A stretch of 64,000 bases of DNA. Source: Patellaria atrata CBS 101060. Its lineage: Eukaryota. Position 1 is the first letter of the stretch. Each line of letters starts with the position of its first letter. The translations under genes and the position numbers were made by a program. The notes under the pieces are model-generated. The model worked only from the letters and a program-made list of their open reading frames with translations, was not told where the DNA came from and did no database searches. The stretch is from NCBI GenBank assembly GCA_010093705.1, contig MU006104.1:310001-374000 (forward strand). Direction: 5' to 3'. This document shows positions 22,136 through 62,617 of this stretch, piece by piece.

Positions 22136-24056
22136 TCATACGGGCTCAAATTCTTGTATGTCTATACCTCTTCCTCGCAAAAAGTCGGGTGTGGTTCTTG
22201 GATCCCATGAGTTCCCGGTCTCTCGCTGGACTTTAAAACCCAAAGTCTCGTCAAATGCGTCTGGCTCCGGTATAGGGACCCTTGGGTCGTCAAACTGCAT
22301 TTTACCACTCTTGTGCTTGAATCCTGGGTACACGTATCCTCCAGGTCGGATCAGCTTCATAGAACAGTACTCGTCCGGTAACGGACCTAATATCGCTTCA
22401 GCGTTCATATAGCCGTCCACATAACAGGGCCAACGAGTTGAAACTGTTGACTACCGTCAACTGGCCTTAACATCCTCGGAGAGGGACAACCAAGGAAAAC
22501 AGATATCTGATCGCCCAATTTTCCCTGTGCTGGAACGGAGCCGAGGTGTCCATCTTCTGTACGGAATAAAACCCGATTCTTGCACATTGATCTAGCATTA
22601 ACTATGTACTTGAGAATCGAGAGTCTGGGTCATCTCAGACCTCGTTCCATGCTCTCTCTCCTCCAATGAAGCCTTTAGAATGTGGTGAGCATCATGATAA
22701 CTTGGATGATATATTGCTGCAGATGCCCACTGTTTCCTGATCAAATTCCATATCAAAGTCCTGCAATAAGCATCGACCAATAACCCCCCACTAGGATAAT
22801 TCTCCTTATGAGCATTCCTAGGAATAACCAAAACAAGGGCTATATGGTTTTCTTGCATAGAGGGATATGAGATATTCTGGTAGAAGACTCGTTCTTCGAC
22901 TTTGCGGATCGTCACGCCCATTATTTTTAGTCTTTAATGTTGCTGATATGAAGCATCTTGTCTTTCCTGAAGCATAATCTACGATTGGTACACTACACAA
23001 AGAAGGTTCAGACCAATTGGGGACCCATGTTGGCAGATTTGAATTAGCTAAAGAGAGGTCTGCATCAAGCAGCACATCCAGGTTCTTACAACGGTTGATG
23101 ATCTTAATAGCAGTCTCCGTGTACACCTCGCCGTCCGTTTTGGAGTACTCTGGTTCGATTTCTATCCTAGGGGCTCGCAGATAAAGGTACATAGTAGCGT
23201 AGATCCTATCTTTTCCCTCGGTGCATCTTGATTGTCTCATGCTGTTCAACAAAATCGGTAGAAAATCACTTGAATGGCCGTCACACAAGGACTGTATAAG
23301 AGCATTCCGGCCTTGAGTGATCTTGGAGCTTATTCTAAAGACGAACAGTTTGGACAGTGTAAAAGCTGCTGTGCGGAAGTCGTCCCATCATACGCACATT
23401 CTTCCGCAAACCAAGATAGCATGTTTCACCATCGTTATTTCCTGTCAAATCCAAACTCTTTCAAACCAAGGTCGATAATATAAATGCAGGACGGACGCCG
23501 AATCTCCCTCATCGATGGACTCACGATCTTGATCTGATATATCCACCACAACGGCATCTCCTGTTGTACTGATTTTGAAAATCACGTTATTCTCACAGTC
23601 TACACGAAACTGCATAATAACAATATTTAATAACTTCATGGCACGGACGCTATCATGTTCCTCATCTGCTTCTCCGAGCCACGCCACGACAAGCCTAGCT
23701 GATGAATAGATATCACGCATCCTTATGACTTGCTGACTTCTTTTGTCTAAGTCCTCTTGGTTTGTACATACTGCGTCTACCCACATGATAAAAGCTCCGT
23801 CAGGAGCTCGTAAATATCTTAAAGCGGTTGTGAGATTACCGGTTACAGAAAGCCTTTTGGGTACAATTTCGATGCTACTCGGACTGGCTGTTGAACCCCA
23901 CACGTACGATAACGCTAGATATTCAGGAACAGTGTCTTCGTTTAGGATCGTGGTATGTATCTTGACTTTGAGAGGATCGTCGACTTTTTCTGGCAATAAT
24001 TCCAACAATCTGATCTGGGTGGGGGGTTTGAGCGGAAGATACGTATAGGACAACAT
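22136..24056 (-). pseudogene. HET-domain (HET-6-like) heterokaryon incompatibility pseudogene
   Basis: YTYLPL...IRLLELLP, YLALSYVWG, VTGNLTTALRYLR, WVDAVCTNQEDLDKRSQQVIRMRDIY, PWFERVWI*QE, DRIYA, LPTWVPNWS, FRTEDGHLG, LVG-CYVDGYM. TGA stops at 23445-47 and 23388-90 and three frame changes (~22925, ~22590, ~22428). Confidence 0.9.
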
Positions 24057-25362
24057 GTTGACATTAATATCCCCTGCTGATTTGAAATCTTCGGGTCTTG
24101 TACAGTCGCGGGGGAAACGCTGGGAAACGCTGAGAAACTCACAATTCTGTAGTATCAACCAACGGCCAAGTCCACCTACGATTGAGCGGCATCTTGACGT
24201 TTTCGACTTTCTATACAAGAAATGGGAGATTACGTCGAGAGTGACCGCACAGTAGACGGAAAACGCCACGTGGGAGTAGAGCTAGTGCTGAAAGCCTAGT
24301 TCACCTAAGCAGGGGAGTTTACTTTAAGATAGACGGGATGATGGGATAGAAAGGGGCGCAGACGGTATACTGGAACGTATATTGGAATGTACAAAAGCCC
24401 ATCGACTGCGATGTGAAATTTAACGATTAAGTTTTGCTGCTTACTTTAGTCAACGAGGAGGAGACTTATGAAGACGAGAGGAGGGGCTGAGAAAGAAAAG
24501 AAAGCATCGTCGCTTTCCAGTGTAAGTAGCCAGCAATCTGAGGTGTCGGTAGGCCAGAGGTACCTTTGCTGCATCCCGTTGCACATAGTGTATAGTGTGA
24601 TCCTTGCCGCACGTCTTGAGCTTGGAGAGAATGTGGGATCTGCAATTGGTACAGCTCCAAACCCCCCTCTAAAATAAGAAAGCAATTTTAGAACTGCAGA
24701 TGTCCTGAAATGCTCTTGAGTGCCCGTATACTGCGGAATGTTAGCTGGCTATATTTGAATATTCTCATCTGTAGTACGTGTGACGGGTAAAATTTGTTGA
24801 GAGCAACAATGGTATAAAAGTTATACATAGCTTTTGAGAGCACATTGGAGTAAATAGAAGTACCGGGAGAAGGCCCAAGGCGCTCAGTGAAATGGGTAAC
24901 AAAAGGTTGTCTGCTATGACAAGAGACTCCGTAGGGAACACAGCGAGTTTTTAAAATCTCTCAAGAATCATGATGTTCCTCATATTCTTATGATTCTAGA
25001 CTATGTCTTTGGATTTTCCAAATTTGTCGTGTGGACGGCTGATCTCGAAGGGAAAGTTGTCGTAGGTGTTTCGATTCCACTGATCCTTAGCAAGCGGACT
25101 CTTTCCGTTGACCCTAAGGTAGAACTTAATTAGAGTGGCACGTGCATGATCTGATGTACAGACTGTCGAGAGAACTCCTAGTTGAACAATTTCGTCAATA
25201 ATGACAAAGTGGATAACGTTGTATTCTCGACTGAGAAAAGTCCCGAGGGAATGAGTCTATGTCTATGCTATATACAGTTCCTTTTTGCCCACCATGCACC
25301 CTTGATGCCTTTGAAAGACGCCGGTACGAGCACGGTGTTGTGCCGTTCGGTGTTACAATGAT

Positions 25363-42516: not shown

Positions 42517-43970
42517 TGGATGATGAGCGATCCATTGGTGTACCGAGAACATGGAAGATTGAACGGTGCAATTCCTATACTATGCTTTTGTTTGCGGAAT
42601 GGGGAGTTCAGCAACTTTGGGAAGCATTAAACGGTCCTATCCTCCCGCGAAGTTGGCGTTTTGGCGTTCGAGTGAAAGGTTAAAAGTATTGTATGTATGA
42701 TGCAAAGAGCGTGGTAACAATTTGCATACAATATTTCCATCTCTGGAAATTATACAATGGGTATAATATCAGTTTAACTACCCGCTACCACCTTTAGGTC
42801 ACCTTTCACCTCACGATTTACGGATCTTACCCCACCTTTTTTTTTTTGGGCGAACACTACTAGAAGCACTGGTGATGTCCTTATCATAACACTGTTGTTA
42901 TTCCCCAGCAGTCGGTTTCCGGGCATCCGCAATCTGCATGTCCTTTGCATTTGACATTTCTCCGCGTGGAAAGCTTGAGTCAAACACAACGAAAAAGACG
43001 ATCTACTGATTTTCATTACTCGTATACATTAGGGAGTTCTACCCGACGTCTGGGACCCCTTGGACCGTTCTTGAATCGTTCCGGTAGAAGAAACGTCCAT
43101 TTGGAACTAGATTATTGGCTCAGGTGAAACTGGTGGTCCCCGTCACTAGAACTAGCCCTACCTTGAATAACTGTTCCGATGCAGGACATGAACTTGAACA
43201 TTCTCCCGGATTTACTGTACCAGTAGAGGAATATAGTAGATATGGAAGAGTTTGCTATCAACTGCAATCTAATTATATACTCTACTAACTGTCGCTATGA
43301 ACTGCGATATGGTAGGCATGAGAGTCAGATATATGAAGACGTCCTTTGAGCATGAGTTTAGTCCAATACGTTCTACTAAAAGAAGCCTCATGATTAGAGG
43401 ATCAAGTTACAAAGTAAGGTTAGGATAACCTTTTCCGTTCGCCTTGTTTACCTAGAACTACCTTATTATTGATGAGCCGCTAGTTTAGACTTGGTATCCC
43501 ATCTCTCGGTTCTGGACTTGGTCGTCTCTACGTCCCGATCAAGTGGATGAACCGCGGCTTACATGCATAACTATGCTACTGGCCAAAAAAATATCGTTGA
43601 CAAGAAAGAGTTGGAAACATGAGGTGGTGAACGGTCTCGGCTTAGAACTAGACTATGACCCGCAAACCTTCAAAGTTATTTGACTGGGAGAAACGATGCC
43701 GAACTACCCCGTATCAAAGCCTCAGGGTTTGCGGAGGAATGGGGAAATGATAGTAGCATACGAGCGGATCCTGCCTTCACGGTATAAAAAGACGGGATGT
43801 TGGAGATCTCATGATCTAGGGTCCTTTACGAATTCCCTTTTCTTTACACATCACCTCGCCTGTCCACGAGAAAAAGATCTTGTTTTTATTTCAAAGTATC
43901 GCCTGACGGTACGATTTGAATTCGGTCTTGACCTAGAACTATAGGGTCACCTCAGTCGTCATCAGTCAAA

Positions 43971-45923
43971 ATGACAGACAGAAACGAAACGATAAACGCG
44001 GCCGAATTTGAGACGCCAGGTCTCATTGAAAAAGTCGATTACAAGCATACCGGACATCATGATCATGTCGCTCAAGAAGCCATCGGCGGTCTCACCCAAA
44101 ATATGCCTCCAGGATACTATCATAGTCCCAGATTCATCGGTACGCTTGTTGTCAGTATCCTCCTAAAGTGTCTCGCCCAAGGACCCAAAGAAGCACATAT
44201 TTAATAGAATATATAGGCAACATGCTTAGCTCAAATATCTGGTTACCTTGGTTGGGTGCTGCCAGCTAACACACTCACACTTATCAACGCGGCTATTGGT
44301 CCATCTCCGAACATCATCTGGGTAGCGATCTCCTGGACTGCAGGCTTCACCGTAGGCTTTACGCTTGTTGGCCGTCTTTCGGATATCTTCGGTCGCCGGT
44401 GGTTTTTCATCGGAGCTTCCGTCCTCGCGGTAATCGGCAATATCATCGGAGCAGCAGCCCAAAACATCAATATGTTAATCGTAAGTTTAAGCTACTGGTA
44501 AATGGACGAGTCTCGCGCTAATTGATGATTCCAGGCTACAAACTGTATCAATGGTCTCGCAGCCGCTGGCCAATTGTCCTTCAATGTCGTCCTTGGTGAA
44601 CTCGTCTCCAATAAAGCTCGTGGACCTTTCAACGCTATCGTCCTTTCTACTTCGATCCCTTTTGCTGTTTTCGGACCACCGGTCGCCCGAGCACTGTACG
44701 AGAACACTGATTTGCAATGGAGGTGGTCTTATATTCTCGGTGTCATCGTGAATGTAATTGCTGTAGTTCTTTACTACTTCTTCTATCATCCACCCACCTA
44801 TGTGAGTACTGCTGCACAACATATTATGGGATATGTCTAACCATCTCACTAGGAAATGTTGCACGTTGGCGGTAAGTCCAAGCTTAGACAATTAAAGAGC
44901 TTAGACTGGATCGGTATCTTCCTCTTCACATCCGGCCTTGTCGTCTTTCTCATCGGCATCAACTGGGGCGGAGGTATCTACCCCTGGAAATCCGCCCACG
45001 TCCTCGGCGCCTTTTTTGCTGGTTTCGCGACCCTCGTCATCTTCTGCTTCTGGGAGAAACACTGCGGCCTCGACTACCCCCTCATCCCCATGGGTGTCTT
45101 CAAGAACATCAAATACGACTCCATCGTAGCATGTGCCTCCATCGGTGCCATCGTCTACTACTCCATGACCGTCATCTGGCCGACCATGATTGGCGCCCTC
45201 TTCACGACCGACATCCAAGAAATCGGCTGGCTCTCCTGCGCTGTCGGCGGCGGCCTCCTCTTCGGGCAAATCATGGGCGGCATCGGCGTGCGCTACATCC
45301 CACGCATGAAGATCCAAATGACCGTCGCCTCGATAATCATGGTCGCCTTCGTCGCCGCGCTCGCCTCCTCAACCGAGCACACCCGCGGCCGCACCGTCGC
45401 CTTCCTCCTCATCGGTACCGCCTCCGCCGGCTACATCGAGAACCTGACCCTGAGCACCATGGCGCTCGTCTGGCCTCCCGAGGATATCGGTCTCGTCGCC
45501 GGCGTCATGGGCGCCATCCGCACCGGCCTCTCCACCATCGCCACCTCAATGTACTCCTCCATCCTCGCCACCGAGCTCGCCAAGAACCTCCCCAAATTTG
45601 TCCCTACCGCGGCAATCGGCGCAGGCCTCTCCGAGTCCGCAGTCCCGGCCCTCATGAGCGGCGTCGCCGTCGGGAACTTCACGCTGGTCCCCGGCTTCAC
45701 GGAGCAGATTGGCCTTGCGGTCGGCGAGGCGACGAAGAGGGCGTACGTGAGCAGTTTTAGAGTCGTGTTTTTGTGCACGCTGCCTTTCGGCGCTATTATT
45801 CTTGTTGCTGCGCTTATCAGTCCGAATGTTGAGGATTATTTGACTGATGATGTTGCGAGGAGGTTGCAGGATCATGGAGGGGAGAAGGGGGTTGTTAGTA
45901 AGCAGATCGAGGAGGCGGAGTGA
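43971..45923 (+). CDS. MFS transporter, TRI12 (fungal trichothecene efflux pump)-like family, 3 introns
   Basis: PPGYYHSPRFIGT; LVGRLSDIFGRRWFFIG; WRWSY; FFYHPPTY; LDWIGIFLFTSGLVVFLIGINWGG...YPWKSAHV; AYVSSFRVVFL. Confidence 0.9.
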
Positions 45924-46190
45924 GGGGGGGAGCAAAAAGGGGGAAGAAGATTTCTGTAAATATTTCGGATTGTATGAATGGGAATTGTTGAGGCAGATCT
46001 CTCGTCATCCCCGTTGCCAAGCGCCCCCTTTCCTACGTAACTAATGTCTAATATCAAAGGTATACCTTAATTCGGGTCCTTGTTATCATTTTACTAGTAG
46101 CGTAATATTCAATTGTGGGCTTATATACTAACTCAGTAAACCCGCTCCCCCAGCCCCTTTATAAATTAGGCATACTTAGTCATCACTATA

Positions 46191-46257
46191 ACGTGCTTCA
46201 CCAGTCAGTGGGCCAGACCAGTCAGTGGGCCAGTCCACCAAGATCAACCCGCGTCTT
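46191..46257 (+). repeat. Left TIR, with an internal direct repeat CCAGTCAGTGGGCCAG x2
   Basis: Reverse complement of 47954-48020. Confidence 0.95.
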
Positions 46258-46271
46258 CAACAAAATCAACA

Positions 46272-47906
46272 ATGCCACTAACACAGAACCTCCAGAAGCT
46301 CCGGCAAGAAGGTAGATTACTTATTGCTACTAAGTCACTTCAAGAAAACAGAATTTCAAGTATCCGGAAGGCCGCCACATTGTACGATGTTCCGAAGTCC
46401 ACACTCCGTCGTCGAGTATACGGGGTAACACCTCAGAGCGCGTCTAACTCGCGAAAACGAAAGCTACAGCTATCTGAAGAGCAGGCACTCGTAGAATGGA
46501 TCCTAGACCTCGACCGACGCGGATTTCCGCCCCATATCATCGACGTACGACGAATGGCAGACCATTTACTCGCCGCGCGGGGCCAGACTCCTCCCACACC
46601 CGTCGGTAAGAACTGGGTATGCCGCTTTATCAACAACCAGCCAGACCTACAGACAAAATGAAATAGGAAGTTCCATTCTCAACGCGCGAAATGCGAAGAT
46701 CGAGACGTATTTCGCGAGTGGTACGAGCGCGTAAATGAGACGCGCCAGAAGTACGGCATCCTAGACGACGATAGCTACAACTTTGACGAGACTGGATTCA
46801 TGATGGGTGTATCTGCGACATCGAAAGTCGTTACAAGCTCCGATACTATAGGCCGAGCAATTCTTATACAACCAGGCGATCGCGAATGGTCGACGGCGAT
46901 TGAGTGCGTTAATGCGACTGGGTGGGCAATCCCGCCCTTCGTCATCCTTCCAGGAAAGCTCCATCAGTCAAGCTGGTATCGGGGCCTACCTAGTGACTGG
47001 ATGCTCGCTGTTAGCGATAATGGCTGGATAACAGATAAACTAGGATTTGAATGGATTAAGCACTTTAATAACTATACAAAGTCTTGTACGAAGGGGGTCT
47101 ACCGTCTACTTATACTTGACGGTCATAGTAGCCACGCGACGCCTGAATTCGACCAATACTGTACGGAAAACAAGATTATTACGCTCTGTATCCCATCGCA
47201 TACGTCACATCGTCTTCAGCCGCTTGACGTAAGCTGCTACTCCCCTCTAAAGGTCGCGTACGGTCACGAGGTTCAAAAGCTCGCCCGTTATGGAGTCCAC
47301 CATGTTAATAAAGAAGACTTCCTAGCAATATATACTAAGGTGCGGCTATCTATCTTTATAGATCAAAATATTAGAAGCGGATTTCTGGCTACTGGCCTAG
47401 TGCCGTACGATCCTGAGCGCGTCATATCGTCACTTCCAATCACGAAGACTCCGACTCCACCAGGCACGGCTAATGGGGAAGCACCTCAAAGGACTTCAGA
47501 ATCGCCATATACTACTATCCAGCTAGAGCAGCAAGCAAAGCTCATACGGGAAATCCTTCGGCGCCAGTCACAGAGCCCTACTAGCCAAGCAATCAATCAA
47601 CTTGTTAAAGGATGCCAGATGGCGATGCATTCCGCTACCATACTTGCAAAGGAGAATTTAGAGCTTCGTACGGAAAATCAACGCCGAAAACAGAAGCAGC
47701 AGCACCGCCGAAGGTACATCGCACATGGAGGAGCTTTACAGGCTCAGCGGGCTCAGCTCATAGCTGAGGAGTTGGAAAATAGGGAGCAGGAGGCCGACCA
47801 GAGCTGGGCTGGTCAGACGCGACAGCGAGCACCACCAACGTGCTCTAACTGCCATAACCAAGGCCACACAAGGCGTCAATGTACTAGTATCTTAAGTAGC
47901 TCTTAA
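46272..47906 (+). pseudogene. Pogo/Fot1 transposase (psq HTH, CENP-B HTH, DDE_1, CCHC knuckle) with one premature stop
   Basis: SIRKAATLYDVPKSTL; EEQALVEWILDLDRRGFP; VGKNW; YNFDETG; LILDGHSSH; LQPLDV; CSNCHNQGHTRRQC. In-frame TGA at 46659-46661, after which the same frame continues open. Confidence 0.93.
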
Positions 47907-47953
47907 GCATAATTTTATTCGAATATATTTCGTTGTAGTGGAGTAATCGTGCA

Positions 47954-48020
47954 AAGACGCGGGTTGATCTTGGTGGGGTGGCCCACTGACTGGTCTGGCC
48001 CACTGACTAGTGAAGCACGT
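47954..48020 (-). repeat. Right TIR
   Basis: Matches the left TIR with 3 mismatches. Confidence 0.95.
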
Positions 48021-48225: not shown

Positions 48226-49923
48226 CTAAGCCTGACTACTATACAAAAGCGTCTCCTCCAACCGCCCAGGAAGGAACGAAACCCGGCTCTCCACCCCCGG
48301 AAAGTCATCCATCCAATTCCTCGCCACTGGAAAGCTATCTTCAGACCCCTGCCCCACGAAAGCCGGATGATTTCTCCAGGAGTCCAAATCAGGCAGACCG
48401 AGACGCGTCCAAATCTCCACGAGCGCACGCACGAGCCGTTCCCGCTGTGCCGGGCCATGCGAAGCCGTCGGGCTGATCCTCAACCTCTCCTCGCCGGGCA
48501 GCACACTCGGCTTATTGATCGGCTGGACGTAGATATCGTACTCGTCGAAGAGGATGTCAGCGGCCTGCTTGCACAGCGCGGAAGACCCAACCATCAGGGG
48601 CACGATGTGGCTCGTATTCGGCAGGACGGGCAAACCAGCTTCCCGCAGCGCGGCTTTGACGGCGCGAACGTTGCGGTGGAGCTGGATGCGGGTGCTGGGG
48701 TTGGAGGACTGGTGGTCGATTGCTGCTTTGGCGCCGGCCATGATGGGGGGAGGTTGGGCGGTTGTGAAGATGAAGCCCGGAGAGAGGGAGCGGATTGTGT
48801 CGCAGAGGGCGGTGGAGGCGGCGATGTAGCCGCCCATTGTGCCGAAGCCTTTACCGAGCGCGCCGGCGATTATGTCGAGGCGGGACGTGAGGGGGGTTTT
48901 CCCGGGGGAATTGGTGAAGATGTTACTGTTGTCGAGGTGAGAAGCGACGCCTGCACCTTTCGGGCCGTATAGTCCCACGGCATGGACTTCGTCGATGTAT
49001 GTCATGGCTCCGTATTTGTCTGCGAGGTCGCAAATTGCTTCGATGGGCGCAACTGTACCGCACATGGAATAGACCGACTCGAAGACGATGATTTTTGGCT
49101 GGTTCTTGGGAATGGAAGCAAGTTTGAGCTCTAAGTCGACTACATCATTGTGGCGCCATATCATCTTTTTAGAGCCCGATCTTCGCATTCCCTCGATGAT
49201 AGATGCATGATTACTCTCGTCTGAGAGAAAGACGCAATCGGGAAGTTGTCGTCCCAACACCGAGAGAGTACAGTCGTTGGCAGTGTAGCCTGAGTTGAAG
49301 TAGAGTGCAGCAGGTTTGGAGTGGAGGTGTGCAAGAGTTTGTTCGAGGGCCAAGGCAAATTGATTGTGGCCGCTGATGTTTCGAGATCCACCAGAGCAGG
49401 CGCCGTATTTCTGTAAAGCAGCAGTCATACTTTCGATAACTTTCGAGTTGCTACCCATGCCAAGCTATGACAAAGAATCAGCTTAGGTCAGTATTAGTAG
49501 ATGCTCCAGGCTTACATAGTCATTCGTACACCAAACATCCACTTTCTTCTCCTCAGCATCCGAATGTGCAAACGGGAAGTCTTTAGCCAAACGATTGATA
49601 TTGCGGAAGTATCGATAAGATCTATCGTCTTTCTTCTGTTGTATAATGGACTCAAAGAGCTTGTTGTAATTGTACTGTGCCAATCCATTTTCATGACTCT
49701 GTTCGACTGGCCCAGGTGGAGTAGCGATCTTGAAAGTATGGGGATTTGCTGTGGCTTAATATGGATACATATGTCAGTGAAAGCTTCAGGGATATTCATT
49801 GCGCTGCAACTCACCAAGCTCCCGCTTCTGCCGTTCTAGCATGAACGACGTGATACCACACCCTTTGTGTAGGTAGCTCGTCATCCGTCGACCACCAAGT
49901 TGAAGGCTCACAATTCCCGCCAT
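48226..49923 (-). CDS. Divergent 5-aminolevulinate-synthase-like PLP alpha-oxoamine synthase (HEM1 paralogue), 2 introns
   Basis: [70 protein letters not shown] lysine in [28 protein letters not shown]. First exon from ATG 49923 splices in frame (GTGAGT donor); this start is less certain. Confidence 0.9.
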
Positions 49924-50661: not shown

Positions 50662-52088
50662 ATGGGTACTACTTTTCTAGCAAAAGACGTTACCACCTGC
50701 GCGGTTGTGGATGGACGCGAGAATGACATTCATGTCATTACTGAGAAGCATGGAAATCCATCAGTTGGAGGACCTACGTATCGAATGGACGGCGGTTTGC
50801 AGGCCTGGTTGCAAGTGCTCGGAAGTTGGATTCTTTTCATGAACACCTGGTAAGTTAGTGATTGCTGGCAGTTTCAGTTCTTACGAAGCTTATATGGGTA
50901 GGGGTCTTACCAATTCATATGGTATTTTTGAGACCCATTACATCCATGACCTTCTGAAAGGGAGTACTGCATCTGCAATAGCTTGGATAGGATCCATCCA
51001 GCTTTTCCTTACAATGGTAGTCGGCGCACTTGCAGGTTGGCTTCTAGACGCTGGATATCTTCGGCCTATACTGATCGCTGGTACCGCGTTGGAAATCCTT
51101 GGAATGTTCATGCTCTCTATTTGCAAGACGTATTGGCAGGTCCTACTCGCTCAAGGAATCTGCACCGGTTTGGGTAGCGGACTGTTAGGACTCACGTCTG
51201 TGGCTGTTATCCCGCTCTACTTCAAAGAGAGACGTATGATCGCTACAGGAATCGCCGCGACTGGTAGTAGTTTAGCTGGAATTGTCTATCCTCTCATGCT
51301 TCGGAAGTTATTTGTGAGCGTCGGATTTCCGTGGGCAGTCCGTGCTCTGGCTTTCCTCATGCTTGGCTGCCTGCTCGTATGCATCGCGGTCATGCATCTG
51401 CGTCCACATGCTCGAAAGCCGAGCCCCATATTCCAAACTACGAATCTTAGGGATGTTCCGTATACAGTCTTCGTTGTTGGTAAGATATCTCGTCGTTGTT
51501 GTACGGTTCTGATCTAACAAACTCCACGCAGCGTTTACTCTCATGATCGCTTCGGTCTATGTTCCGTTCTTCTACATATCGGACTACTCCTTGAGACTAG
51601 GCATCAACGCGGATATGGCATTTTATATGTTAATAATAATGAACGCGGCATCTTTATTCGGACGACTCGTTCCTAACTATCTCGCGGATCTTTATGGTGG
51701 TGTTAATGTCATGATCCCATGCTGTTTCTTATCAGGTATCCTTATTTTTGTGTTTCGCGAAACTCATACATTGGCTTCTCTGATAGTTATCGCGTCCGTA
51801 TATGGGTTCATCAGTGGTGGAATGGTGTCTTTGCCACCAGCGACAATAGCAAATCTTACCACAAACCCTGATCAGTATGGAACTCGTATGGGCATGGCAT
51901 ATACCTTCTGTGCATTTGGTGCATTGGTTGGAAATCCGATAGCCGGCGCGGCGAGGAAAAAGACACATGAAAACGCTTTACAAAGCGTGGTGACAGAATT
52001 GCAAGGAAGCTGGTTCTTTGCCGGCACTATTATGCTTCTTTCGACTGCACTGCTAGTAGTAGTAAAGCTAAAGACAGTAAAAAAGTAA
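50662..52088 (+). CDS. MFS monocarboxylate-transporter-like protein (Mch4/Mch5 family), 2 introns
   Basis: DGGLQAWLQVLGSW...NTW|GLTNSYGIF; IAWIGSIQ; LAQGICTGLGSG; YFKERRMIATGIAATGSSLAG; GFPWAVR; NAASLFGRLVP; GTRMGM; ALVGNPIAGA. Confidence 0.92.
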
Positions 52089-53039: not shown

Positions 53040-54190
53040 ATGCCGTCAAAGGACAAGTACACTGATCCGGAGTTGAGAGAGCAAGTTAAGGAGGAAATTA
53101 AAGCCGGTGACAAAGGCGGTAAGCCAGGACAGTGGTCTGCTCGAAAGGTAGGTAGCCTAAAGCGTTTTAACGCGCTTGTATCAGTTCTAATACATAGTAG
53201 GCTCAAATGATGGCCTCGGAATACAAGAAGCGAGGAGGTGACTACACGACAGATAAAAAAGACCAAGACGAGTCCCAGAAGAACTTGAGCAAATGGGGGG
53301 AGGAAGAGTGGCAGACAAAAGAAGGAAGTGGAAATGCTAAACAGGAAGATGGAACCGAGAAGAGGTATCTCCCGAAGAAAGCTTGGAAAAATATGACTGA
53401 GGAGGAAAAGAACGAGACTGATGAGAAAAAGCAAAAGGGAAGTAAAGAAGGCAAACAGTACGTCTCCAATACAGAAAAAGCGAAAGAGTCTAGGAAGAAA
53501 GCAAATGAAGAAGAGGCCGCAGAGTACGACAACAAAAAGTTAGCGGAACAGGGATCAGATGATGAAGCGATGTCCGAAGACGGGGATGATGCTGACATAG
53601 GTGTCGATGCCGAACAGGGGCAAAATGAGGAGGGGCAGGACGAAGTAGATAAACAAAATACTGATGCTGAAGAATATCAACCAAGCGAGGATGAGATAGC
53701 GGGAGATGTAGATGGAGTGGAAGATAATGAAGAAGAAGAAGAAAAAGGAAAAAACAGTCAAGATAGGAACGCACGCGACAAACGAACCCCTAAGGCAACC
53801 AAAGGCGGCATAGATAATGATAAAGCCGAAGTTGGGAAAAAGCGTAGTCGTCCATCTGAAGATCAAATCTCACCCAACAAGAAGCAGAAAGATGCCTCGG
53901 GTAAGCAAAGGCAGAATGGCACCAATGGTACTACTGGCTCGGAACATAATGGAGATGAGCAGTCACCAAAACCGGGCTCCAAGGACAGATTGCCAGAGAA
54001 GGGTCAGAAGGTGAAGTGGAAAGCACCCTCTGGATACGTGGAAGGAGAGGTGATCGAAATCGTACACGAAGAAAAGGAGGTTGATGGAAAGCACGTGAAA
54101 GCTACTGACTCCGACCCACGCATTGTATTAAAGTCGAGTTCATCTGGCAAAACAGCCGTCCATAAGCCTGACGCGGTATACTTTGACTGA
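53040..54190 (+). CDS. DUF5872-like N-terminal domain + acidic linker + C-terminal Hva1/DUF2945 Tudor-like domain, 1 intron
   Basis: KYTDPELREQVKEEIKAGDKGGKPGQWSARK|AQMMASEYKKRGGDY; WGEEEWQT; RYLPKKAW; C-terminal GQKVKWK...VEGEV...KATDSDPRIVLKSSSSGKTAVHKPDAV. Confidence 0.8.
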
Positions 54191-55936: not shown

Positions 55937-56746
55937 GTTCGTAGTCAAGTACTGAGCAGAGTAGAAGTAGTTCTACATATGACAACATTTAGGCCAATGT
56001 CTTTTAAGCGCATCTTCTTAAAGGTGGCTGGCCTAAACTGTTCTTGTTGTAGGACTGGGTGGCTTTAGGTCATGTGCGGAAGCTCTTGGGATACATCAGA
56101 TGCAGGTTGATAGAATGAATGATGAATGATTCTTCCTCCGAGGATTCGAAGTAAGTGCTCCTATTGCTCTAGCGAGTAGTAGGTGCTCACTGCTTCACTG
56201 GTGCCTTTTGTTTTGCAGATTATAGCTTGGGTTATTAGCTTTTTGTCTGGGTGCAAGCCTGCCAGGTCTCTCCCCGAGGCCCTAATTTCTAGTTGGTCTG
56301 CAGTTCTGCACTGGTCTACCATCATTCATCACCCCTCCTCTTCCAAAAATTAAATCTACTGACGAACGACAATCTTGTGCTGGTCAACAACAACGACCAC
56401 CGTCTCTAACCTCCTCCGCTCGTTACATATTTGTTCAAGTTCCCTCTTCCTCAACGAAACCGTGTATCAATTCGTCCATGCTGGCTTCTGCCAGCCTTTG
56501 GTCAGGTGGCCACGAGCCCTAATTGTTTCTTCCTCTCGCCAAAAGTGACATCTATCTTGCTCCGCACTCGACCTCTAGTTCCCCTTTTCGCCTGTCTTCT
56601 ACAACTACGCGTTACATCATGCTCTCCAGCTGCTTTACCGCATAAGACACCACTCTGGCTGCCTCACGGGCGGACCGTGTTAGGTCGCTTGTTCTTTAGC
56701 AAGCAGGCCCCGGACCTGCGGATCGCGACGACAACAATTAGGTACA

Positions 56747-59700
56747 ATGGAAGAAGTCAACAAACTGAATTCTCTGGCTCCGCCAGCTGTCACAGCACTC
56801 AAAGAACAGGCAGCTGGCGCAAGTCCCCGTGGAAAAATGGAACGCACGATCAGTATGGACATTCGAGAAGAACGAGAAGATCTGAAGAATGCTGCAGAAC
56901 AGAGCCTTAATGTGATCATGGACCTCAACTTAGATGGTCACATTCGATGGGTTAGTCCGTCATGGTTGGCATTGGTTGGTACTGCGCCAGAGTCTGTCAT
57001 TGGAAAACCTATTACAGAGATTCTGGTCGGTGATCACAATCCGTTCTCCGATGCTGTTGAGTCTGCGAAACAAGATGATTCTAGGAGCCAAATAATTCGA
57101 TTTTCGGTTTCTCTAGGGCCGTCATCTGTCCTCAGACCGAGACCAAGGTCTCCAATCATAGTATCGCCGAGACACGTTCCGCAGGGTGATAACGAACATG
57201 ACCTTACTCAAGAAGACATCACAGTTGAAGAGAAAGAAGCGTATGAACAAGAGATCTTAAACTTAGAAGCTCAGGGGATCATGGTGTACGATCGGTTTTC
57301 TGGTGAAGCAAGTCATGTGAGCGTCCCTAATTCACTAATTCGGGGACCATTTCTAACCCAGTTTTAGACTATGTGGATGGTACGGCCTGCGGTTGTACGT
57401 GAAGTTACGATCGACTTACCACCAATTTTAGTCGAAAGCCTCGGTGTCGGTGCGGAGGTGTTGGCAAATCATCTAACCAAGCTAGCGGAAGTTGGTGCCA
57501 GTGATCCCGAGAATCTTCCTCCTCCACTTCCAGTTCTCTGCCGTATATGTGAACGTCAGATACCGCCATGGTGGTTCGAAAAGCACACAGAGCTCTGCTT
57601 ACAAGAGCACAAGGCAGAAATGGAGGTACAGATCGCACAAGAGAATCTCAATGAACACCGTAATGCAATTGTCAAGGTTCTGGACGCTTTAGAGGCTCAT
57701 TCACGCCAATCCAGGGCATCTCCTTCGGAATCTTCATCTCCAGGACCGTTAGTACCATCTGCTGAATATAAAGGATTTGTTATTCCACCTACTTCAACGC
57801 CGTCATCTGGTCCTTCCTCTGGAAGATCTACACCTGCCTCTCAACCATCCCAGTCCCGTGACCGATCTACAGGTTTTGGACATCATCGAGCTCGATCTTT
57901 CGCAGTTAGGAGACCAATAGCTCGTATTGTGGAGCTGATTCTGGATCTTTGCGATACTGCTCTTGAGATCAATACTCCAGCAATAAAAGATACAAAGGGA
58001 CAAGGTACTGAGCTGAGATCTCAGTCTCCACAATCGGAAAGTCGCATATCGCAGGTCTTAGGATGGCAGTCGCCTGCCAGTGGTACTCTCGAACAGGAAC
58101 AAGGTCTCTCCTTGTTGTGTGATGACACAGCTAAACTTGCTCGGGCTAAAGTTGAGTCTATATTTCGTCATCGAAGAGTTCTTGAGTATTCAGAACGTAT
58201 CAGAGTAGAGTTCGACGTCCTTGTCCAAGAATGCATTGATCAAGCAATGCGGAAAGCAGCGTCGATAGCTGCTGGTGAGTTGAGTGACTCTGGAGAAGAT
58301 ACTGCTGGTGAATTAGAAGAGGATCAAATAGGACCAGAAGCTAGTGAAGATCCTCCATCACTTCCCTCGGAAGAAGGAATGTTTCCAGCATCATTTGAGA
58401 ACACTGGTATCATGTCGACCATAAGTAATACGTTACGCAACCCTTCAGAGACCTCTTTACCTTTTCAAGTCGCGCGTAGAGCATCCTCTGCGGCAGGATC
58501 AACTCGCTCGAGCAGCCCACGGGGTAGTCAGACTCCAAGATCCCATCCCTCAGGTATGAACCTACTGGCACAAAGCAAAAGGGCGTCAATCCATTTCGAG
58601 AGCGATGCTGGGGCAGATAGCGATAGTAGTGTATTATCTTCAGCAATATCTGGACCTCGAAGAGCGGATTCCCCAGTATCCGAGATTGGCCTCAGCCGGG
58701 CAGCTGGCTCACGAGAACGAAAGCGTCGTAGTCTAATACTTCCTAGTGTTTTGTCAAGCAGGCAACAATCCCCGGCTCGTAACATGATGCCGCCTTCATC
58801 GCCGCTCAGAATGTCCAAACCTCGAATTCCTAGTGGTGCAGAGAGCATCCAGTCACCCATAACTTCTCCTGTGTTATCAACTAGCGAGTTCTCCTCCCCT
58901 ATGATCCATCCTCAGCAGTTGCACCACCACCGACGACAGTCTTCTGCTGCCGGGTCCGAAAGCATGCGTCGCCCCGTATCGCCGCGTATGGCACCAGTAA
59001 CTAACCCTCAACCACGTGCGGTACCTACTTCTATCAAAGACTTTGAAATTATCAAACCGATCAGTAAAGGTGCATTCGGCAGTGTCTACCTCGCAAAGAA
59101 GAAATCCACTGGTGATTACTTCGCTATCAAAGTCCTAAAGAAGGCAGACATGATCGCAAAAAATCAGGTCTTGAACGTAAAGGCCGAACGAGCGATCATG
59201 ATGTGGCAGGGGGAAAGTGATTTTGTCGCTAAGTTGTATTGGACGTTCTCAAGTAAAGACTTCCTCTACCTCGTGATGGAGTATCTGAATGGAGGGGATT
59301 GCGCTTCCCTCATTAAAGTCCTTGGATATCTCCCAGAAGATTGGGCGAAGAAATACTTGGCTGAGGTTGTTCTAGGCGTGGAGCATTTACACAGCAGAGG
59401 GATTGTTCACCGAGATCTCAAGCCAGACAATTTACTCATCGACCAGAAAGGCCACCTGAAGTTGACCGACTTTGGGCTTTCTAGGATGGGTCTTATAGGA
59501 CGACAAAAGAGGGCGCTCAACAACAAAACTGATGAACCTGTACCCGATCTGTTGAAACAAGGCCCATTCCATCGAGCGGTGTCCGTGACATCGTCTCGTT
59601 CCGCGTCTTTCGATTTGCAGGGACCAAACCATTCCCCACATCAGACACCAAGCATGACACCTGCTACAACGAGTGACATGGGACAGCCCTCCTACTTTAC

Positions 59701-62617
59701 TCTTAGTAGGGAGGAATCTAATACAGGGGACAGCTCAAAGGCTTCTGGCAATCGAAGTGATAGCGGAGATAGCGAAGCCTTCCAGTCGATGTTCCGGAGA
59801 TTTTCGATTGTGGACACCAACGGATCATACCAGCAGCGTCCTGCAACTGAAGATGAGAACCACAGCGATCATGCGGGTTCCCCTGATCCTTATGTTCTCC
59901 AACCATCAATCAGTCACTCGAGTACTATGCAGAACAATACCCCACCAGCAACATCCACCATGCCACCACCTCCCATGGCTCTTTTTGATCCTCAAGATAG
60001 CAATCGGAGATTTGTCGGTACTCCGGATTATCTTGCCCCAGAAACCATCAATGGTTCCGGTCAGGATGAGGTTAGTGATTGGTGGTCTCTGGGCTGTATC
60101 TTATTTGAGTTTTTGTATGGCTACCCCCCTTTTCATGCTGATACACCCGATGAAGTGTTTCAGAATATCCTCGAGCGAAAAATTGATTGGCCTGATGATG
60201 CCGACTATGACGTATCAGAAGAAGCGAAAGACCTGATGAACAGACTCATGTGCACCGATCCCCGAAAAAGACTCGGTGCTAATGCGGATGACCAGTTTTC
60301 TGCTGGTGGGGAAGAAGTGCGAAATCATCCGTGGTTTGCAGACATTCATTGGTCAACGTTACTTGACGATGAAGCTTCATTTGTACCCGCTTCAGAGGAT
60401 CCAGAGTCCACCGAATACTTTGATTCTCGTGGAGCATGTCTGCAGAATTTCGCGGCCGAGTTTGAAGATCAAGCCAGTTCACCAGGGGGCGCCACACCGG
60501 GTGGTGATTATCCAGATCGCCCGCACGATGCTCTCTCGCGAGTAAGATCACAGGTAAACTCTATAAAACGAGGGCTAATGCCTTTACATATTCCTCCGCA
60601 TGTCCGAGATAGCAGGAGTAGGAGACTTAGCGAACCGGTAGCCACCGATGATTTCGGATCATTCTCCTTCAAAAATTTACCGGTTCTCGAGAAGGCCAAT
60701 AAAGATGTGATCCAGAAATTGAGACAAGAAGCAATGCAAGCCCAGAGCAAGCCCTCTTCTGCAATCACTTCTCCAACAGTCACTACACCGTCGCCTTCCC
60801 TAGAGTCCAGTCCAATATTACCGATCCCTCTAAAGCGAACCATGTCTAGCAATAAGGGGAACAGACCTTCTTCACCATCTTTACTAGGCCAAATGAACGC
60901 TTCGCCTAATAGAGCATCTCAGCCTTCTTCGCCGCTTCTGGTGTCATTTAGTACTGGTCAGAATCATGAACGTAGGAAAACATCAAGTGGCTCTTCCTCG
61001 TTATCCCACCAAAACAGTAGCTCGTTACAACCTGGAAGTTTCTTTGATGTTCCCAGACTCCCGAACACTACCTCCAAAATGTCTTCCAGTGCATCCTCGC
61101 CGATCAAACTATCTAAAACTCCAGGCTCTCGTCAAAGTTCCGGTCACAGTAATGTTACTTCTCCTCGAGTTCGCTCTCAAACCGTAGGTTCTCAAGAGGG
61201 TGACGTTGTCCGAGAACTTATTCCAAATCACCACAAGCGGAGAAGCCAGGTCTACGATATCTCTCCATCGTCGTCCGATAACGAAGATTCCAGACAAAAA
61301 GCTCTATTACGAGTCCAACGGCGACGACAGAGTTCCCGAAGGTTGTCCCAGATAACCTTCGCCGAGGGACCTGTCTTCCGACCACTCGACATCCTCATCT
61401 GCGAAGATCATCCAGTATCTCGTCTCGTCATGGAGAAACTCCTCGAAAAGCTTCGTTGCCGTACAATCTCCGTTCAGACCGGTCCGGACGCGGTGCGATA
61501 CGCTACCAGCGAAGTGAAATTCGATATCATTATGATGGAATTCAAACTACCTCAGATGAATGGTGCAGATGCGGCTCGCATGATCCGAACAACTCATAAT
61601 GCGAATTCACACACTCCGATTGTCGCGGTCACCGGTTACTTGAAAGAACTTCAGGCCCCTCATCACTTTGATGCACTCATCGAAAAACCTCCAACGCTGG
61701 CGAAGCTTACGGAAGTTCTTGCTCGCTTATGTCAATGGAAGACGGCTCCGCCAAATTGGACTCCCAGTCAACTACCAATAGTACCGTCAAATCTGCGTCG
61801 AGAATCAATCCAGCAGGAAGATAGTCCGACATCGAACTCGTCTGGGTTTGCGGCGATGCCTCCATCCAGCTATCGCGGCTCTAGCAGGGAAGATTCAATC
61901 AGTTCCAGCTTCTTTGGGGATAATGACAGTCGCAATGGCGACGTTCCCGTCATTATCAACAAGCATGGCGATGACTGGCGAGATCGGGATCTCGCTCGTG
62001 CTCTCGGTGGTCTAGGTATATCAGAAGATCCTGCCGAAGAAATAGATCCGAAGTTAGCACAACCACCCCTCCCTGACCTTATGGTTCAGAGGTCCGCACC
62101 GGGCATGTTAGAGCATCCTGTAGGACCAAAGAAGCAACGTTCAAGTGAGGCTATCGCTGCAAAGCGACGTTCCATCGAGAAAAAGCGTCATGAGACTGCG
62201 GATTCAGGTGATGACGAGGATGAAGAGCTAGGGAACTTTCAGGTTCGCGCCAAGAGTCCGAAGGGCGGTCGCTCAAAACCACAATCTAAGCTTGGGATCG
62301 AGATGATGCGTACCAACAGCCATGGAAGCGTCGTTTCGGTGGAAGAGCTCGCCATTGCGGATCATCTTACTTCATCCCCTCCACCCGCGATCTCTGAGGA
62401 TCCCCTGGCGGAGGAAGCTAGCCAACAAAGTCTGGCTGCTCCGAATAACGGCTTAGGACAACCGGTTCATGCAACGCTGACACCACCGGAGATATTCCCC
62501 CTCGCACCAGGTGACAATATCAAGGAGATTGACATGGATGTCACCCCAAAACCCGCCCAAGATGACTTCAGAGACCCGGATCCTACGCCTAAGGCTACAC
62601 CCTCGCGTCGACATTGA
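56747..62617 (+). CDS. RIM15: Rim15/Cek1 Greatwall-family kinase (PAS, C2HC zinc finger, split AGC kinase, receiver domain), 1 intron (~57317-57368)
   Basis: PAS-like N-terminus; CRICERQIPPWWFEKHTELC; IKPISKGAFGSVYL; HRDLKPDN; DFGLS...insert...FVGTPDYLAPE; REC domain ILICEDHP...IMMEF...IEKP. Confidence 0.97.

Follow-up and report, generated by a model that had tools for sequence, protein, structure and literature searches.

Fungal 5-aminolevulinate synthase (ALAS) is usually regarded as the gatekeeper of heme synthesis, encoded by a single gene and specific for glycine, and the recruitment of ALAS to specialised metabolism is known so far from bacteria. Here we describe an ALAS paralogue of the fungus Patellaria atrata CBS 101060, encoded in a stretch of 64,000 nucleotides of contig MU006104.1 (assembly GCA_010093705.1, positions 310,001 to 374,000; the window). 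The gene belongs to a conserved second lineage of fungal ALAS with a co-inherited transporter.

Two of the closest described systems are bacterial; they are cited here from the available parts of the respective papers, as is all other literature. AlmA of the Streptomyces alaremycin pathway carries Ser82 and Gly86, condenses serine with succinyl-CoA, and is clustered with an exporter of the major facilitator superfamily (MFS) (PMC9356726). Its S82T mutant retains 0.3% of the serine activity, and the S83T mutation in the cyclizing ALAS (cALAS) of the asukamycin pathway abolishes production (PMC9356726). The markers of the cALAS enzymes are T83S, I149L/V, D231T and T365S, and Thr83 'directs amino acid specificity' (PMC4525017). 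This residue is described as Thr among all ALAS (PMC9356726). Thr365 of Rhodobacter capsulatus ALAS, equivalent to yeast T452, binds the succinyl carboxylate from its place at the apex of the 'Gate', a highly conserved element (PMC13674496). Most ALAS enzymes possess two or three heme-regulatory motifs, while yeast Hem1 has none (PMC3136693). In fungi, the only related earlier report that we found is that of a dermatophyte cluster in 2012 (PMC3408471), the available part of which contains no residue analysis. Neither the fungal ALAS paralogue clade nor the ALAS-MFS gene pair described below appeared in the literature searched, a search whose scope excluded about 1.7 million PMC articles and the subscription journals.

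An ALAS that is not the housekeeping enzyme

The third exon of the window gene (Table 1) is sufficient to place its product in the ALAS family. It scores 478.7 bits against the NCBIfam model TIGR01821 (5-aminolevulinate synthase equivalog; cutoff 338.55) and matches Pfam PF00155 with an E-value of 2e-60. The best structural matches are all ALAS, namely yeast Hem1 (PDB 5TXR and 8EIM, E ~5e-115), 7x98 (403 residues, of bacterial length; 3e-109), human ALAS2 (2e-93) and the R. capsulatus enzyme (3e-92), and the next family, AONS/KBL, is far weaker (5e-48). The alignment with yeast Hem1 extends into the eukaryote-specific C-terminal extension, where Trp363 and Trp384 are invariant in 18 aligned sequences, both paralogues and canonical enzymes. 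Against TIGR01821, full-length paralogues score 558-565 bits and canonical proteins 636-643 bits. The ALAS-type core that an initial annotation, made from the DNA letters only, had recognised by its lysine and ERLR motifs is thus well supported.

The same annotation had proposed that the gene does not encode the housekeeping enzyme, which holds: the organism has a canonical HEM1 as well. Searching proteins with a canonical sequence from a Dothideomycete retrieved P0280, a protein of 618 residues titled '5-aminolevulinate synthase-like protein [Patellaria atrata CBS 101060]', which groups with the other Dothideomycete Hem1 proteins in the tree and shares 52.8% identity with the window protein. 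P0280 is encoded on a different contig (1,828,131 bases, as against 638,982 bases for that of the window gene), and the window gene is therefore a paralogue and not the only ALAS of the genome. Both ALAS types are also present in Myriangium duriaei, Lindgomyces ingoldianus and Pyrenodesmia sp. 3.

The gene is intact, with an unbroken frame of 412 codons in exon 3. The public model consists of 404 residues and is titled 'tetrapyrrole biosynthesis, 5-aminolevulinic acid synthase [Patellaria atrata CBS 101060]'. This model begins at an internal Met of exon 3, also differs at the C-terminal end, and omits about 115 N-terminal residues, including SYRYF...WCTNDY, which are encoded upstream with standard splice sites. 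Joining the three exons yields a coding sequence of 1581 nt for 526 residues. Exon 2 was placed by homology; it lies within an in-frame open reading frame (ORF; 49483-49755), and its product aligns with canonical Hem1 and the full-length paralogues at the N-terminal part of the core. Exon 1, predicted from the reading frame and splice signals only, is bounded by a GTGAGT donor at 49814. Intron 1 ends in a CAG acceptor, 6 nt upstream of which lies an alternative acceptor, also in frame, and intron 2 reads GTAAGC...CATAG.

Table 1. Features of the window and of the related metagenome contig (positions in the window unless stated; PLP, pyridoxal 5'-phosphate; MCT, monocarboxylate transporter)
Feature	Position	Strand	Remarks
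ALAS paralogue	48226-49923	-	Patellaria atrata; three exons
Exon 1 of ALAS paralogue	49815-49923	-	36 codons + 1 nt; predicted start at first ATG downstream of in-frame stop
Exon 2 of ALAS paralogue	49516-49748	-	conserved N-terminal helix region, reading to VDVWCTNDY
Exon 3 of ALAS paralogue	48226-49464	-	catalytic core and eukaryote-type C-terminal extension, including stop; 412-aa open frame
Ser codon TCT at Thr83 specificity position	49384-49386	-	aligned to 2bwn_A
PLP-binding lysine codon AAA (R. capsulatus K248)	48850-48852	-	in GALGK; invariant in alignments
Gate apex K-P-S	48505-48513	-	Lys at 363 (aromatic lost), Ser for Thr365; aligned to 2bwn_A
Intergenic region between divergent ALAS and MFS start codons	49924-50661	.	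738 bp; putative shared promoter
MCT/Mch4-like MFS transporter gene	50662-52088	+	about three exons; PF07690
TRI12/DHA2-type MFS efflux pump	43932-45923	+	PF06609 TRI12 (E 4e-40) plus upstream exons; weak TIGR00711 DHA2
Tc5/pogo-type DDE transposon	46036-47994	+	HTH_Tnp_Tc5, HTH_psq, DDE_1
Hva1-TUDOR gene	53201-54187	+	
PAS-kinase-receiver gene	56410-62617	+	large, Rim15-like architecture; unrelated to ALAS paralogue
HET-domain gene	23445-24281		unrelated to ALAS paralogue
Metagenome contig L091	1-14862 (of L091)		fungal cluster, 14.9 kb

Active-site changes shared by the paralogues

Residues are numbered according to R. capsulatus ALAS, through alignment to chain 2bwn_A. On this scale the substitutions of the window protein correspond to T83S, A115G, T245A, F363K and T365S. 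The best 120 database matches comprised 28 paralogues (P0001-P0023, P0030, P0049, P0055, P0077 and P0114, where P0001 is the public protein of the window itself) and 92 canonical proteins, to which another 118 were added to give a canonical set of 210. Position 83 is Ser in all 28 paralogues and Thr in all 210 canonical proteins, and position 115 is likewise Gly in 28/28 and Cys in 210/210 (SSCY to SGY in the window). Tyr363, present in every canonical protein, is found in none of the paralogues. Ser takes the place of the canonical Thr365 (210/210) in 23 of the 28 (NYPTV to NKPSV in the window), and Ala that of Thr245 (209/210) in 20 (GTLGK to GALGK in the window). In addition, the window protein reads FTTAQ for FTTSL, the SL of which is kept in 206 of the 210 canonical sequences. 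All of these changes had been listed in the initial annotation, together with GGT to GGS at position 83, and every one proved to be present and unusual relative to the canonical set.

Other positions vary within the clade. Position 86, which corresponds to Gly86 of AlmA, is Ser in the window, as in ordinary ALAS, and Ala in 7 of the 28 paralogues. The window protein has Met at position 149 and Ser at position 231, where most paralogues have Ile and Glu, respectively; P0003 shares both residues with the window, and P0002 shares Ser231 only.

On the larger scale, a column comparison between 29 paralogue rows (the 28 database sequences and the full window model) and 71 canonical sequences revealed 29 fixed differences in the core, defined as one residue in at least 95% of the canonical sequences and another in at least 75% of the paralogues. 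Three further differing positions, located in the unalignable N-terminus on one or two sequences, were disregarded. The 29 differences cluster in the glycine-rich loop (GAGAGGT to GACSGGS), the PLP-lysine motif (an altered GTLGKAYGCV) and the Gate.

The catalytic apparatus is nevertheless kept. The window protein retains the PLP lysine, the DEVHAVG motif, Asn85, and the arginines of ERLR and SYRYF; the equivalents of R. capsulatus K248, R21 and R374 are found in GALGK, RSYRYF and ERLR, respectively. Residues that bind PLP and the carboxylates of glycine and the succinyl group are either unchanged or conservatively replaced. In 21 sequences of subclade A, to which the window gene belongs (see below), the catalytic residues are invariant.

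Emergence from fungal ALAS

We calculated two maximum-likelihood trees, one of 84 rows under LG+G4 and one of 77 rows under LG+C20 PMSF (posterior mean site frequency), by quick searches with SH-aLRT support (the Shimodaira-Hasegawa-like approximate likelihood ratio test). The paralogues are monophyletic in both (support 99 and 100), and their clade is located inside the fungal ALAS group (96 and 100), beside canonical Pezizomycotina Hem1. The animal-like and alphaproteobacterial ALAS fall outside the fungal group in both trees, and the branching order inside it is without resolution in either. The clade divides into subclade A (17 rows, support 88), which holds the window, and subclade B (7 rows, support 100), mostly of Xylariales and Polychaeton. 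Within the clade the gene tree departs from that of the species, and carriers are scattered, a usual picture for accessory genes. The phylogeny with fungal Hem1 and bacterial ALAS suggested in the initial annotation thus nests the paralogues within fungal ALAS.

Ser83 is also found outside the fungi, for example in representatives from Thalassomonas, Rubripirellula and Neokomagataea, and at least five changes between Ser and Thr are required on the second tree. Uniting the fungal paralogues with eight Ser83 representatives from outside the fungal group lowered the log-likelihood by 86.9, with a P-value of 0.008 in the approximately unbiased (AU) test; this grouping was defined post hoc, after inspection of the tree, and the eight are stand-ins, none of which is named a cALAS. 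A scan of genome contigs yielded 80 loci, none titled as actinomycete, among which Thr83 was present in all nine examined. Judging from the trees, the paralogue clade arose within fungal ALAS and not by transfer from bacterial cyclizing ALAS. Because the clade is nested in fungal ALAS and the AU test rejects the union, the fungal Ser83 looks convergent with the bacterial cases.

P0126, a 470-residue ENA protein carrying Ser83, Ser245 and Phe363, branches within the fungal ALAS group but belongs to neither the canonical nor the paralogue clade; it may represent a further independent Ser83 lineage. An intron after WCxNDY was considered as a marker of the paralogues and rejected: it is common to the window gene, where it is intron 2, and a subclade-B gene on contig L091, but also occurs in the canonical-type genes L083 and L113. 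The other canonical-type genes among 36 metagenome loci read through the intron position at WCSNDY.

The clade has features that would fit a drifting or regulatory duplicate without distinct chemistry, either a copy under relaxed selection or an inhibitor-resistant target for self-protection. The paralogues evolve faster than the canonical copies, and their distribution in Pezizomycotina is patchy; in P. atrata, moreover, a transposon lies about 230 bp past the stop codon. However, the long exon is unbroken, and the altered residues are themselves conserved throughout the clade, so they cannot be put down to random decay. Since all catalytic residues are kept, pseudogenisation, which the initial annotation had named as a finding that would count against a new function, is not indicated. 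Ser is one nucleotide away from Thr, and its strict retention across four fungal classes argues that Ser itself is selected. Together with the transporter pairing kept across three classes (see below), these observations make a drifting copy improbable.

A short N-terminus free of Cys-Pro motifs

The absence of Cys-Pro heme-regulatory motifs, claimed in the initial annotation, is confirmed on the predicted full-length model, which lacks any Cys-Pro in the 108 residues ahead of WCTNDY. Every one of the 166 canonical proteins with 590 residues or more contains at least one Cys-Pro before WCSNDY (mean 2.0), with a median N-terminus of 188 residues. P0280 follows this pattern, with 186 residues before the core motif and two Cys-Pro (MCPF and RCPV). 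In the full-length paralogues the median N-terminus is 90 residues; Cys-Pro occurs in 3 of 14, adjacent to the core (ARCPKTG) and never in the leader.

The N-terminus encoded by exon 1 is basic and acid-free, with three basic and no acidic residues among the first 25. At least three basic and no acidic residues in this segment are found in 13 of 15 paralogue N-termini, that of the window included, which would fit a mitochondrial presequence. The window protein resembles canonical Hem1/HemA, such as yeast Hem1 and P0280, in its fold, TIGR01821 membership, C-terminal extension and basic leader, and in the retained PLP lysine, His and Asp ligands of PLP, and arginines for the substrate carboxylates. 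It differs from them by Ser83, Gly115, Ala245, Ser365 and the lack of an aromatic residue at 363, by an N-terminus about half as long without the two Cys-Pro, and by its MFS neighbour.

A conserved transporter partner

The conserved MFS neighbour, which was absent from the initial annotation, is the strongest functional clue at this locus. The transporter gene is divergent from the ALAS paralogue, and in NCBIfam it most resembles monocarboxylate and lactate transporters, with neither match reaching the cutoff. Three aligned blocks (50779-52046) cover residues 24-410 of its orthologues, which are 429-435 residues long. The closest homologues, 60-73% identical, are found in the scattered set of species that also carry subclade-A paralogues: Penicillium coprophilum, Aspergillus candidus, M. 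duriaei, L. ingoldianus, Colletotrichum spp., Cladobotryum mycophilum and Neoarthrinium moseri.

The paralogue and the transporter carry consecutive accessions or locus tags in 7 of the 13 other species examined (8 of 14 with the window). These are, with the ALAS named first, A. candidus (PLB38218 and PLB38219), A. campestris (PKY02672 and PKY02671), A. taichungensis (PLN85134 and PLN85135), M. duriaei (KAF2148177 and KAF2148176), L. ingoldianus (KAF2475159 and KAF2475158), Colletotrichum karsti (KAF9879506 and KAF9879505) and three assemblies of N. moseri (for example JX265_002096 and JX265_002095). The pairing spans Eurotiomycetes, Dothideomycetes and Sordariomycetes. The C. karsti transporter (P0415) is annotated with 949 residues and an added PF09994 domain; it is probably a gene model merged with a neighbour, which would then be a further neighbour of the pair in this species.

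The subclade-B cluster on contig L091

A scan of metagenome contigs covered 9 of 64 parts and yielded 80 loci, among which a paralogue was found on L091 alone. This contig holds an ABC (ATP-binding cassette) transporter gene, a subclade-B ALAS with Ser83, a flavin amine oxidase gene and an ATP-grasp gene, along with genes for porphobilinogen (PBG) synthase (310 bits, cutoff 297) and hydroxymethylbilane synthase (PBG deaminase; 207 bits, cutoff 164); no uroporphyrinogen III synthase was found within the 14.9-kb stretch. It also encodes a second ALAS of canonical type, which has Cys-Pro motifs, reads INHPTV for INYPTV (a His in the Gate), and is sister to the Zalaria Hem1. A Ser83 enzyme is thus kept here next to a Thr83 enzyme. 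The same gene content is reported for the VLB cluster of Microsporum gypseum (PMC3408471). The window gene is similar to the L091 and VLB copies in being an extra fungal ALAS outside primary heme synthesis, and the Ser83 copy of L091 belongs to the same clade. In contrast to those copies, which are accompanied by PBG synthase, PBG deaminase, an ABC transporter and ligase-type genes, it is paired with the MCT-type MFS gene, and a tblastn search of the window with PBG synthase, PBG deaminase, amine oxidase, ATP-grasp and ABC proteins of the L091 type gave no matches.

What the enzyme may produce

The explanation to which we lean, tentatively and with less than even confidence, is that the window encodes a two-gene module, consisting of a specialised, non-housekeeping alpha-oxoamine synthase of the ALAS family and its MFS transporter, and that the product would be an AlmA-like compound other than 5-aminolevulinic acid (ALA), acting as a secreted antimetabolite of PBG synthase. 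Plain ALA is a close second as the product. The enzyme would enter mitochondria by its short basic presequence and, lacking Cys-Pro motifs, would escape the throttling by heme that is thought to act on canonical HemA. It would then carry out the PLP-dependent condensation of an amino acid with succinyl-CoA or a close dicarboxyl-CoA; a succinyl-type CoA ester is presumably still used, because the carboxylate-binding residues are kept. Ser at both 83 and 365, together with the loss of the aromatic residue at 363, may enlarge the pocket, such that an amino acid bulkier than glycine, either Ser or Ala, would be accepted or even preferred, as serine is in AlmA. The product would be ALA or a 5-substituted analogue of it, and the MFS partner would export it.

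The comparison with AlmA, made here with its published description only, offers three parallels, which look convergent: Ser at the Thr83 position, an adjoining MFS gene, and a separate route to normal ALA in the organism. As for Thr83 itself, the initial annotation had stated a role in glycine selectivity, a relaxation toward alanine by T83S, and Ser in cyclizing enzymes. The first and the last agree with PMC4525017 and PMC9356726, while the relaxation toward alanine was not found in the literature available, including a heme review of 2026 that does not mention T83.

Several points weigh against the AlmA-like product. The second AlmA determinant is absent, as the window has Ser at the position of Gly86. 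Bacterial AlmA is clustered with an N-acetyltransferase and an oxidoreductase, and no AlmB/AlmC-like acetyltransferase or oxidoreductase was found near the ALAS paralogue. Cyclizing ALAS still uses glycine despite Ser83 and Ser365, so Ser83 is no proof of a new amino-acid substrate. The PBG synthase and PBG deaminase genes beside the sister-subclade enzyme point to a genuine ALA product. In matched pairs among four species, the paralogues share 59-68% identity, compared with 75-83% for the canonical copies. With respect to the transporter, it could import instead of export, and adjacency outside the window was deduced from the order of accessions or locus tags, not from DNA. In five of the 13 species (C. 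higginsianum, C. spaethianum, C. tabaci, C. destructivum and Cladobotryum mycophilum) the MFS homologue does not adjoin the paralogue, being on another contig or at distant numbering, and a different MFS copy might be the neighbour there; in P. coprophilum the two genes have only the length of their contig in common. Finally, residues and gene neighbours are the whole basis for the proposed product.

Several of these points would suit an ordinary isozyme that makes ALA from glycine and succinyl-CoA without heme feedback, its pocket changes only tuning the kinetics. Such an enzyme could supply extra ALA where much heme or porphyrin is needed, for the synthesis of a specialised tetrapyrrole, or as a compound secreted through the MFS protein. 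We place this reading close behind the AlmA-like product. It is consistent with the TIGR01821 score, well above the cutoff for exon 3 alone, with the kept or conservatively changed residues for PLP and both carboxylates, with Ser where AlmA requires Gly86, and with the ALA-consuming enzymes clustered on L091 and the M. gypseum cluster of the same content (PMC3408471). The loss of Cys-Pro would likewise fit an unregulated supply (PMC3136693). On the other hand, the complete segregation of Ser83 from the canonical Thr suggests selection for something beyond the capacity of Thr, and the fixed differences concentrate in active-site motifs. The Ser83 and canonical-type enzymes of L091 would be redundant if both made only ALA, which would be odd within one cluster. 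Furthermore, unregulated mitochondrial ALA would feed the producer's own porphyrin pathway.

Another possibility would be a fungal cyclizing ALAS, which would form ALA and then convert ALA-CoA to the C5N unit (2-amino-3-hydroxycyclopent-2-enone) of an amide-linked natural product. Like cALAS, the window gene is a secondary copy beside the primary ALA route, two of the four cALAS markers (T83S and T365S; PMC4525017) extend across subclade A, and the window protein, P0003 and, in part, P0002 are also non-canonical at positions 149 and 231. The lineage is a different one, however, with the clade nested in fungal ALAS and its union with the eight other Ser83 representatives rejected. I149L/V is absent from most paralogues, which retain the canonical Ile149 and Glu231; the printed marker D231 could not be placed, as 2bwn_A reads Glu at 231. 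No ALA-CoA ligase, other acyl-CoA ligase or amide synthetase domain was found in the ORFs of 42-57 kb or elsewhere in the window, and where C5N pathways have their gene triad, the partner conserved here is a transporter. The literature titles found on C5N concern Streptomyces and other actinomycetes, apart from one review of epoxyquinoids from bacteria and fungi. We thus consider the cyclizing enzyme highly improbable, and the weakest of the proposals. The window contains no detectable polyketide synthase, nonribosomal peptide synthetase, acyl-CoA ligase, acetyltransferase, PBG synthase or PBG deaminase gene.

Of the initial proposal, a copy outside heme feedback that makes another alpha-aminoketone, cyclizes ALA-CoA or overproduces ALA, the remodelled and non-housekeeping character stands, while each of the three functions is at most a candidate.

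The specialised synthase with an AlmA-like product can be extended to a bolder proposal, which we find rather unlikely as a whole: a portable cassette of two genes, carried by many filamentous fungi and made up of a Ser83 synthase free of heme control and an MCT-type exporter, would secrete an ALA analogue that poisons PBG synthase. An example of such a product would be 5-amino-6-hydroxy-4-oxohexanoate, made from serine and directed at the PBG synthase of competitors or hosts.

Possible consequences for fungal tetrapyrrole metabolism

A specialised function of this clade would carry the bacterial theme of ALAS recruited to secondary metabolism, as in cALAS and AlmA, into eukaryotes, and may account for the unexplained 'porphyrin' gene clusters of some fungi. 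If the cassette proposal were true, eukaryotes would have reinvented the alaremycin strategy, apparently by convergence, and the product would be the first antimetabolite from a fungus to be aimed at tetrapyrrole synthesis. The two genes are a target readily expressed and assayed, and the paralogues are natural variants that could be exploitable for the engineering of ALA or ALA-analogue production free of heme feedback. Caution is called for with automated annotation, which labels Ser83 paralogues as ordinary heme enzymes.

Surroundings of the locus

The first ~42.5 kb of the window are of housekeeping type, with genes for CCCH zinc finger, GH18, Vps53, G-patch, ORC3, HET, LETM1, adenylate kinase, PX/Vps5, Pal1, HVSL, CPSF-A/Rse1-like and LMBR1 proteins. 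On the 3' side of the ALAS paralogue, the TRI12/DHA2-type efflux pump gene is convergent with it; were the transposon between them removed, about 340 bp would separate the two stop codons. This Tc5/pogo element is present at approximately 3- to 20-fold the depth of its flanks in DNA runs of the organism, indicating that it is multi-copy. Its variant sites are mostly C>T or G>A, a pattern like that of repeat-induced point mutation.

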